A DNA stretch of 64,000 nt from Escherichia coli (lineage in GTDB: Bacteria; Pseudomonadota; Gammaproteobacteria; Enterobacterales; Enterobacteriaceae). The notes below the pieces were generated by a model that did not search any database, was not told the origin of the DNA, and worked only from the letters and a program-made list of their open reading frames with translations. Shown here piece by piece: positions 2,107-2,337 of this stretch; positions within the stretch are counted from its first letter, which is position 1; every line of letters starts with the position of its first letter. The stretch lies in the NCBI RefSeq assembly GCF_003334255.1, contig NZ_QOWU01000021.1; one strand, written 5' to 3'. The position numbers and the translations under genes are program-made.

Positions 2107-2337
2107 ATGCATTTCGCTCAGCGAGTTCGCGCCCTGGTTGTGTTGAATGGCGTGGCGTTATTGCCTCAATTTGCCTGTAAACAGGGGCTTGCGAACGGTG
2201 AACTGGTGCGCCTGTTTGCACCGTGGAGCGGCATACCCAGACCGTTGTATGCTTTATTTGCGGGGCGAAAGGGGATGCCTGCCATTGCGCGATATTTTAT
2301 GGATGAGTTAACCACGCGGCTTGCCAACGGGGTCTGA
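2107..2337 (+). pseudogene. yqfE: remnant of a LysR-family regulator C-terminal domain (yqfE-like fragment)
   Basis: 76-aa ORF ...LPQFACKQGLANGELVRLFAPWSGIPRPLYALFAGRKGMPAIARYFMDEL resembles only the C-terminal tail of LysR-type regulators; no N-terminal HTH; sits in the argP-rpiA divergent region. Confidence 0.5.

Follow-up and report, generated by a model that had tools for sequence, protein, structure and literature searches.

A short open reading frame (ORF) in the gap between argP and rpiA of Escherichia coli carries the C-terminal end of a LysR-type regulator, which raises the question of the gene from which this piece is derived, how it was left at this place, and whether it is still of any use to the cell. 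In the following, the window denotes the whole 64-kb stretch of E. coli DNA that was analysed, and positions refer to it unless a locus of another strain is named.

Identity of the Reading Frame

According to the ORF listing of the window, the frame is initiated by ATG, comprises 76 codons and occupies positions 2107..2337 on the plus strand between argP and rpiA. It matches yqfE (b2915) of strain MG1655 at 231/231 bases and has the same position and strand relative to rpiA and argP; in the annotation NC_000913.3, b2915 carries a pseudogene flag. The first-pass annotation of this DNA had called the frame yqfE-like, which is correct and can be refined to yqfE itself. The ORF is this already catalogued K-12 pseudogene, and we regard it, with a probability of about 0.9, as a non-functional and ordinary decaying gene remnant. 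The feature is thus a known one, listed as a pseudogene in the most thoroughly studied of bacterial genomes. In many RefSeq genomes PGAP calls the ORF an ordinary CDS, and any entry at this position named “LysR substrate-binding domain-containing protein” or “hypothetical protein” is better understood as denoting a pseudogene. In the literature searched, yqfE is mentioned only in a deletion list, and no account of an ancestral island, of a junction or of an antisense-derived start codon was found.

As to its coding content, the ORF matched PF03466 (LysR_substrate) in Pfam with residues 15-72, corresponding to model positions 151-208 of 209 (E 7.1e-7). This was the sole Pfam domain: the helix-turn-helix (HTH) domain PF00126 is absent, and the effector-binding domain is incomplete, with 58 C-terminal positions of PF03466 being matched. 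The matches to NCBIfam were weak and all of them concerned the final ~60 positions of LysR regulators, such as AaeR or YafC. A tblastn search revealed that residues 14-76 of the ORF equal residues 236-298 of an intact LysR regulator of 298 aa, with 63/63 residues identical (E 8e-38), and at the nucleotide level the tail is identical to the intact allele of strain TUM18530 over 193/193 nt. A 76-codon ORF encoding the tail of a LysR substrate-binding domain, as proposed at first pass, is therefore confirmed by both the domain match and the residue identity. That it encodes this tail only is true of codons 14-76 (2146-2334) and fails for the ATG and codons 1-13, which are antisense azoreductase sequence. 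Lacking the HTH, the linker helix and ~70% of the effector-binding domain, the encoded peptide cannot act as a regulator; presumably it is either not made or without a role. The shortness of the ORF, the partial Pfam match and the weak NCBIfam scores might also suggest a chance open frame with a spurious domain match, but this is ruled out by the 63 residues and 193 nt identical to intact LysR 3' ends at the orthologous position and by the tblastn E value.

Over the 5 kb compared, the window differs from MG1655 (NC_000913.3) by two bases, T for C at 822 (in scpA) and A for C at 4720, and is therefore a relative or derivative of K-12 that is distinct from the reference sequence itself. Its 427-bp argP-rpiA interval is 100% identical to that of strain TG1. 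By correspondence with the annotation of MG1655 and TG1, the pair of ibsC toxin and sibC antitoxin sRNA is located just 3' of serA, at about 4770-4910.

Anatomy of the argP-rpiA Interval

The interval and its flanking genes can be divided into the following features:

1072..1965, minus strand: argP (iciA), intact LysR-family regulator, flanking gene outside the relic (ORF listing; annotated as argP in TG1 and MG1655)
1966..2018, minus strand: argP upstream region with 5'UTR and probable core promoter, a role read from conservation only; common to island-bearing and island-less strains
2019..2060, no strand assigned: filler of ~42 bp that separates the azoreductase relic from the sequence upstream of argP, origin unassigned
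2061..2144, minus strand: azoreductase-like 3'-end relic of 84 bp, about the last 27 codons, stop codon lost (blastn, tblastn, antisense translation)
2144..2145, no strand: deletion junction (breakpoint alignment to SMS-3-5)
2107..2337, plus strand: chimeric 76-codon ORF (yqfE), consisting of 13 antisense-azoreductase codons followed by 63 LysR codons
2146..2337, plus strand: LysR-derived tail, residues 236-298 (codons 14-76, 2146-2334) and stop codon
2338..2392, plus strand: rpiA upstream spacer with TATAAT at 2353-2358, probably the -10 of the rpiA promoter, 5'UTR and ribosome-binding site
2393..3052, plus strand: rpiA, flanking gene (ORF listing; TG1 and MG1655 annotation)

Strains such as SMS-3-5 and 1504D004 possess a four-gene island between argP and rpiA, and comparison with them accounts for most of the interval. 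Positions 1966-2018 are 100% identical to positions 1445-1497 of the SMS-3-5 locus (L003), the argP-proximal 53 bp of island strains, and none of these 53 sites segregates among 11 relic alleles; in 2338-2392, one of 55 sites does. These two near-invariant stretches are likely promoter or 5'UTR regions, while the relic between them seems to evolve freely. A promoter and terminator scan of 1900-2450 returned zero sites on both strands, those of argP and rpiA included, and is hence uninformative, and no Rfam family was matched in 1800-2600 at E <= 1. The filler at 2019-2060, with a diversity (pi) of 0.034, a neutral level, gave no significant match in a sensitive blastn search to island alleles, other genera, other loci or the rest of the window.

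The azoreductase relic was recognised by blastn, in which 2087-2144 corresponds to positions 2597-2654 of the 1504D004 locus (L001) at 88% and to SMS-3-5 (L003) at 92%; the match extends to 2067-2144 at 82%. The antisense translation of 2061-2144, 28 letters long, can be aligned with the C-terminus of AzoR (TQPGRELAEQNALAQIPDLITHVFNHYL), and residues 182-207 of AzoR matched the window in tblastn (E 2e-9). In relation to SMS-3-5, about 1,346 bp (L003:3267-4612) are missing between positions 2144 and 2145, comprising the 5' part of the azoreductase gene, the divergent promoter region and LysR codons 1-235. The junction shows a microhomology of at most 1 nt and is identical in all K-12-type alleles examined, which indicates a single illegitimate deletion. 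Since the ATG and the first 13 codons (2107-2144) are read from the opposite strand of the azoreductase-like gene, at its 3' end, the ORF is an accidental chimera and more than a simple truncation.

Additional frameshifted LysR pieces had been suspected in the gap. With the intact full-length protein as the tblastn query, no other LysR fragment was found in 1900-2400 in any frame, other matches having E > 0.9, and LysR residues 1-235 of the 298-aa protein left no trace elsewhere in the 64-kb window.

The Ancestral Four-Gene Island

In SMS-3-5 and 1504D004, argP and rpiA lie ~3.4 kb apart, and the module between them covers L003:1515-4805 in SMS-3-5. Three of its genes are on the minus strand and encode a ferric-reductase-like membrane protein with a FAD-binding domain (441 aa), a DUF1471 protein of the YdgH/BhsA/McbA type (86 aa) and an FMN-dependent NADH-azoreductase-like protein (209 aa). 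Divergent from these is the gene of the LysR regulator (298 aa), which ends 55 bp before rpiA and whose intact products possess both PF00126 (HTH_1) and PF03466 (LysR_substrate). None of the island proteins reaches an equivalog cutoff of NCBIfam. The best NCBIfam model for the intact regulator is PRK14997 with 171.8 bits against a cutoff of 380, YafC and AaeR are among its other best models, and its closest solved relatives are AphB of Vibrio cholerae (3szp, 3t1b; E 1e-34) and 3hhg. With no equivalog cutoff reached, the parent gene is to be regarded as an uncharacterised LysR-type transcriptional regulator (LTTR) and as an orthologue of no named one.

The interval gave a match in each of the 5,426 complete E. 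coli genomes. In a minority of them, the match was confined to the right-hand part of the interval, where the annotation lists a complete LysR family transcriptional regulator; the island is located at argP-rpiA in 249 genomes (~5%) and is nearly complete in 233. The same arrangement of argP, island and rpiA occurs in E. whittamii and Escherichia sp. E1V33, both with a fragmented ferric-reductase gene, and in Escherichia sp. MOD1-EC7003 with a frameshifted LysR gene. A Pseudocitrobacter MAG carries the island at argP-rpiA without the azoreductase, and in Citrobacter portucalensis the azoreductase and LysR genes alone remain there. The presence of intact 298-aa alleles at this very position in E. 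coli, other Escherichia, Pseudocitrobacter and C. portucalensis supports the earlier proposal that the fragment is the relic of an ancestral LysR gene. The suggested synteny comparison led to the same result, placing the ancestral gene at the argP-rpiA site; in Salmonella, the homologues, i.e., the four-gene module, are found at a different locus and are fragmented in a genome of serovar Infantis.

The first-pass annotation had also pointed to the placement of the remnant beside argP, itself a LysR gene. The intact regulator matches ArgP models at the family level only. Judging from the gene arrangement, the adjacency appears to be coincidental, and the lost gene would have regulated its own divergent redox operon.

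The azoreductase stop region of C. portucalensis (L015:4214-4290) resembles the 3' end of the ferric-reductase gene of E. coli (L003:1498-1530), as seen from a comparison of GGTTACAGACCCTTTAACGCATGC with GGGTACAGAGCATTTAACGCATAC, which suggests that the two-gene arrangement of Citrobacter may also be the product of an internal deletion of the four-gene island. An origin of the K-12 state by a single deletion from a Citrobacter-like order argP-azoR-lysR-rpiA was considered as well and is unsupported, the alignment to C. portucalensis (L015) being poor over 2019-2060.

Decay of the Island and of the Reading Frame across Strains

In E. coli, the island is being lost by several routes, with insertions of IS1, nested deletions and frameshifts all contributing to its decay. 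Among island-bearing strains a disrupted ferric-reductase gene is common; it is split into three CDS in 1504D004 (L001:905-2228) and interrupted by IS1 in several others. Strain WB61 has lost the island by an independent deletion with different breakpoints (L003:1560-4535), and its remnant (L027:1445-1876) retains a longer tail of ~89 LysR codons, with an ORF of 71 aa from an internal Met.

The K-12-type interval is present at a coverage of at least 80% in 5,158 genomes, and among remnant-bearing strains the reading frame is not conserved. An in-frame internal deletion of 45 bp, which removes 15 residues of the tail, was found in 1,535 of the 5,426 genomes (28%), and in 295 genomes (5.4%), those of the O157:H7 type, the frame additionally begins with TTG and is stopped by TAG at codon 5. 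In strain E09, the tail shows a frameshifting deletion of 89 bp and a further one of 24 bp. Conservation as a small protein, which had been named at first pass as the observation that would speak against a relic, is thus not what these deletions, the codon-5 stop and the frameshifts reveal, and the reading as a relic stands. It is in line with this that the genome-reduced strain DGF-298 lives without yqfE (PMC10652928).

Between the stop codon of the ORF and the rpiA TATAAT, E2348/69 carries an insertion of 272 bp (L004:~1591-1862), of which a shorter copy is located at the same site in E09. The insertion point lies between positions 2352 and 2353 of the window, at the TATA of the putative rpiA -10, so that TATAAT is regenerated on the right side and everything upstream of the -10 is replaced. 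The insertion of both strains is probably an ERIC/IRU-like repeat, as it contains sequences corresponding to the ERIC1R and ERIC2 primer sites. No copy of this ERIC-like element is located within the window.

Polymorphism and Selection

Nucleotide diversity was determined from 11 relic alleles, and variants shared with intact genes were identified by comparison with at first eight and then nine intact alleles. The values of pi were as follows:

LysR tail, codon positions 1 / 2 / 3: 0.019 / 0.011 / 0.083
Adjacent non-coding relic: 0.034-0.037
rpiA upstream spacer: 0.003
rpiA, codon positions 1 / 2: 0 / 0
rpiA, codon position 3: 0.031
argP, codon positions 1 / 2: 0.005 / 0
argP, codon position 3: 0.047

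Compared with real genes, the tail is under far weaker constraint; nevertheless, its variation is biased to synonymous changes. At codon positions 1 and 2 its diversity is well above that of the flanking genes and below that of the neutral proxies, and at position 3 it is in excess; the segregating sites among the 11 relic alleles number 4, 2 and 17 at positions 1, 2 and 3. Several alleles that are 97-99% identical in their DNA encode an identical product of 76 aa. In the first 13 codons, the segregating sites number 4, 1 and 0 at the three codon positions, which is the opposite of a coding signature.

Taken at face value, the pattern of the tail would point to purifying selection on the ORF, an explanation that is largely removed by haplotypes common to relic and intact alleles. 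Eleven of 24 variant states were shared with the eight intact alleles sampled, and all eleven are synonymous. Haplotypes spanning the divide between relic and intact genes pair UCPROB with 32F4, K-12 with TUM18530, and E2348/69 with TUM13936; the addition of this last intact allele, found by a targeted search, moved two further variants from the relic-only to the shared class. The relic-only changes, which shrank in number as intact alleles were added, now amount to 7 synonymous versus 5 non-synonymous in a small sample of 11 relic and 9 intact alleles, a ratio that is somewhat more synonymous than expected under neutrality (binomial probability ~0.02 in a rough calculation by hand). The single-origin junction together with the shared haplotypes argues for recombination between relic and intact alleles, and the synonymous bias of the tail is probably, to a large extent, inherited through it from intact genes under selection.

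Discussion

Of two different island genes, truncated ends are preserved in the interval in correct order and orientation, and this indicates that the K-12 state was derived by deletion and disfavours an insertion. From the order of these pieces, the following history may be proposed. The ancestor of Escherichia would have possessed the four-gene island at argP-rpiA, with a LysR regulator reading toward rpiA and a divergent redox operon. In the lineage leading to most E. coli, illegitimate deletion would then have taken nearly all of the island. One junction connects LysR codon 236 with the 3' end of azoreductase, which here stands in antisense; a second loss may have removed the ferric-reductase and DUF1471 genes, leaving ~42 bp of unassignable sequence. 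By chance, the antisense azoreductase fragment contains an ATG in frame with the LysR codons, 38 bases before the junction, and this gives rise to the ORF of 76 codons.

Two alternatives grant the fragment a present use. The chimeric ORF might be translated as a micro-protein of 76 aa that exposes a LysR C-terminal surface, could e.g. disturb the oligomerisation of LysR-type regulators, and is kept by weak purifying selection among those E. coli, roughly two-thirds of them, whose ORF is intact. The synonymous bias of the tail polymorphism, including the 7 to 5 ratio of relic-only changes, the identical protein encoded by divergent strains, and an ATG start with a weak purine-rich CAGGGA (2092-2097) ~9 nt upstream agree with such a product, but most of the synonymous variants belong to haplotypes common to intact genes, so that the bias is inherited, and the ATG and N-terminus are accidental antisense DNA without coding-type conservation. 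Moreover, 28% of the genomes dispense with 15 internal residues, 5.4% carry the stop at codon 5, frameshifted alleles exist too, and yqfE is dispensable in DGF-298; a stretch of 63 C-terminal residues from a two-lobed fold of the periplasmic-binding-protein type would also be unlikely to fold alone. We consider the micro-protein very improbable. The fuller proposal, according to which the fusion-made start codon leads to a translated peptide of 76 aa that is weakly selected in most E. coli lineages and titrates or modulates LysR-type regulators, strikes us as scarcely credible. If a peptide were translated and selected, yqfE would represent a case in which the remnant of a pseudogene has taken on the role of a new small gene.

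Rather than its product, the DNA of the tail might be kept as a cis-regulatory sequence of rpiA, as an upstream promoter element or by read-through transcription, so that longer deletions are selected against. This would fit the observation that the two independent deletions, of the K-12 and WB61 types, both end within the LysR gene and leave its 3' end in place, that the last ~40 nt of the tail (2296-2337) are present in every allele examined, including the heavily deleted one of E09, and that the adjoining spacer is almost invariant. With only 55 bp separating the LysR stop from the rpiA ATG, the -35 element that belongs to TATAAT at 2353-2358 would be expected at the end of the tail. Against this, the 272-bp ERIC-like element parts the tail from TATAAT in E2348/69, as does the shorter copy in E09, deletions of 45, 89 and 24 bp within the tail are tolerated, and diversity at position 3 of the tail is high; at most the last few dozen bases would be of importance, and constraint cannot be demonstrated from two deletion events. 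We therefore rate a regulatory use of the tail as unlikely, and return to yqfE as a decaying remnant without function.

For this remnant, our analysis provides an origin. We can assign it to one particular redox island of four genes, which ~5% of E. coli and members of related genera have kept intact, and its start codon is recognised as an accident of deletion. In addition, the locus illustrates on a small scale that a dead fragment may, through recombination with intact alleles, acquire a polymorphism that resembles purifying selection, which calls for caution in screens that nominate small proteins from synonymous-biased variation.

Compared with known systems, the ORF of the window does not differ from yqfE (b2915) of MG1655 in sequence or position. 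In relation to the LTTRs of the group around AphB, CrgA, AaeR and YafC, the parent gene is a full member with both domains, whereas the match of the relic to PF03466 is confined to the final 58 positions, and HTH, linker helix and effector pocket are all missing from it. The island shares with the flexible genomic islets of E. coli its presence or absence between the same core genes, the truncated gene ends at the scar and several independent routes of decay, but it differs from them in having no mobility genes, tRNA or repeats at its flanks, and it looks like an old chromosomal cluster under loss rather than a mobile island.
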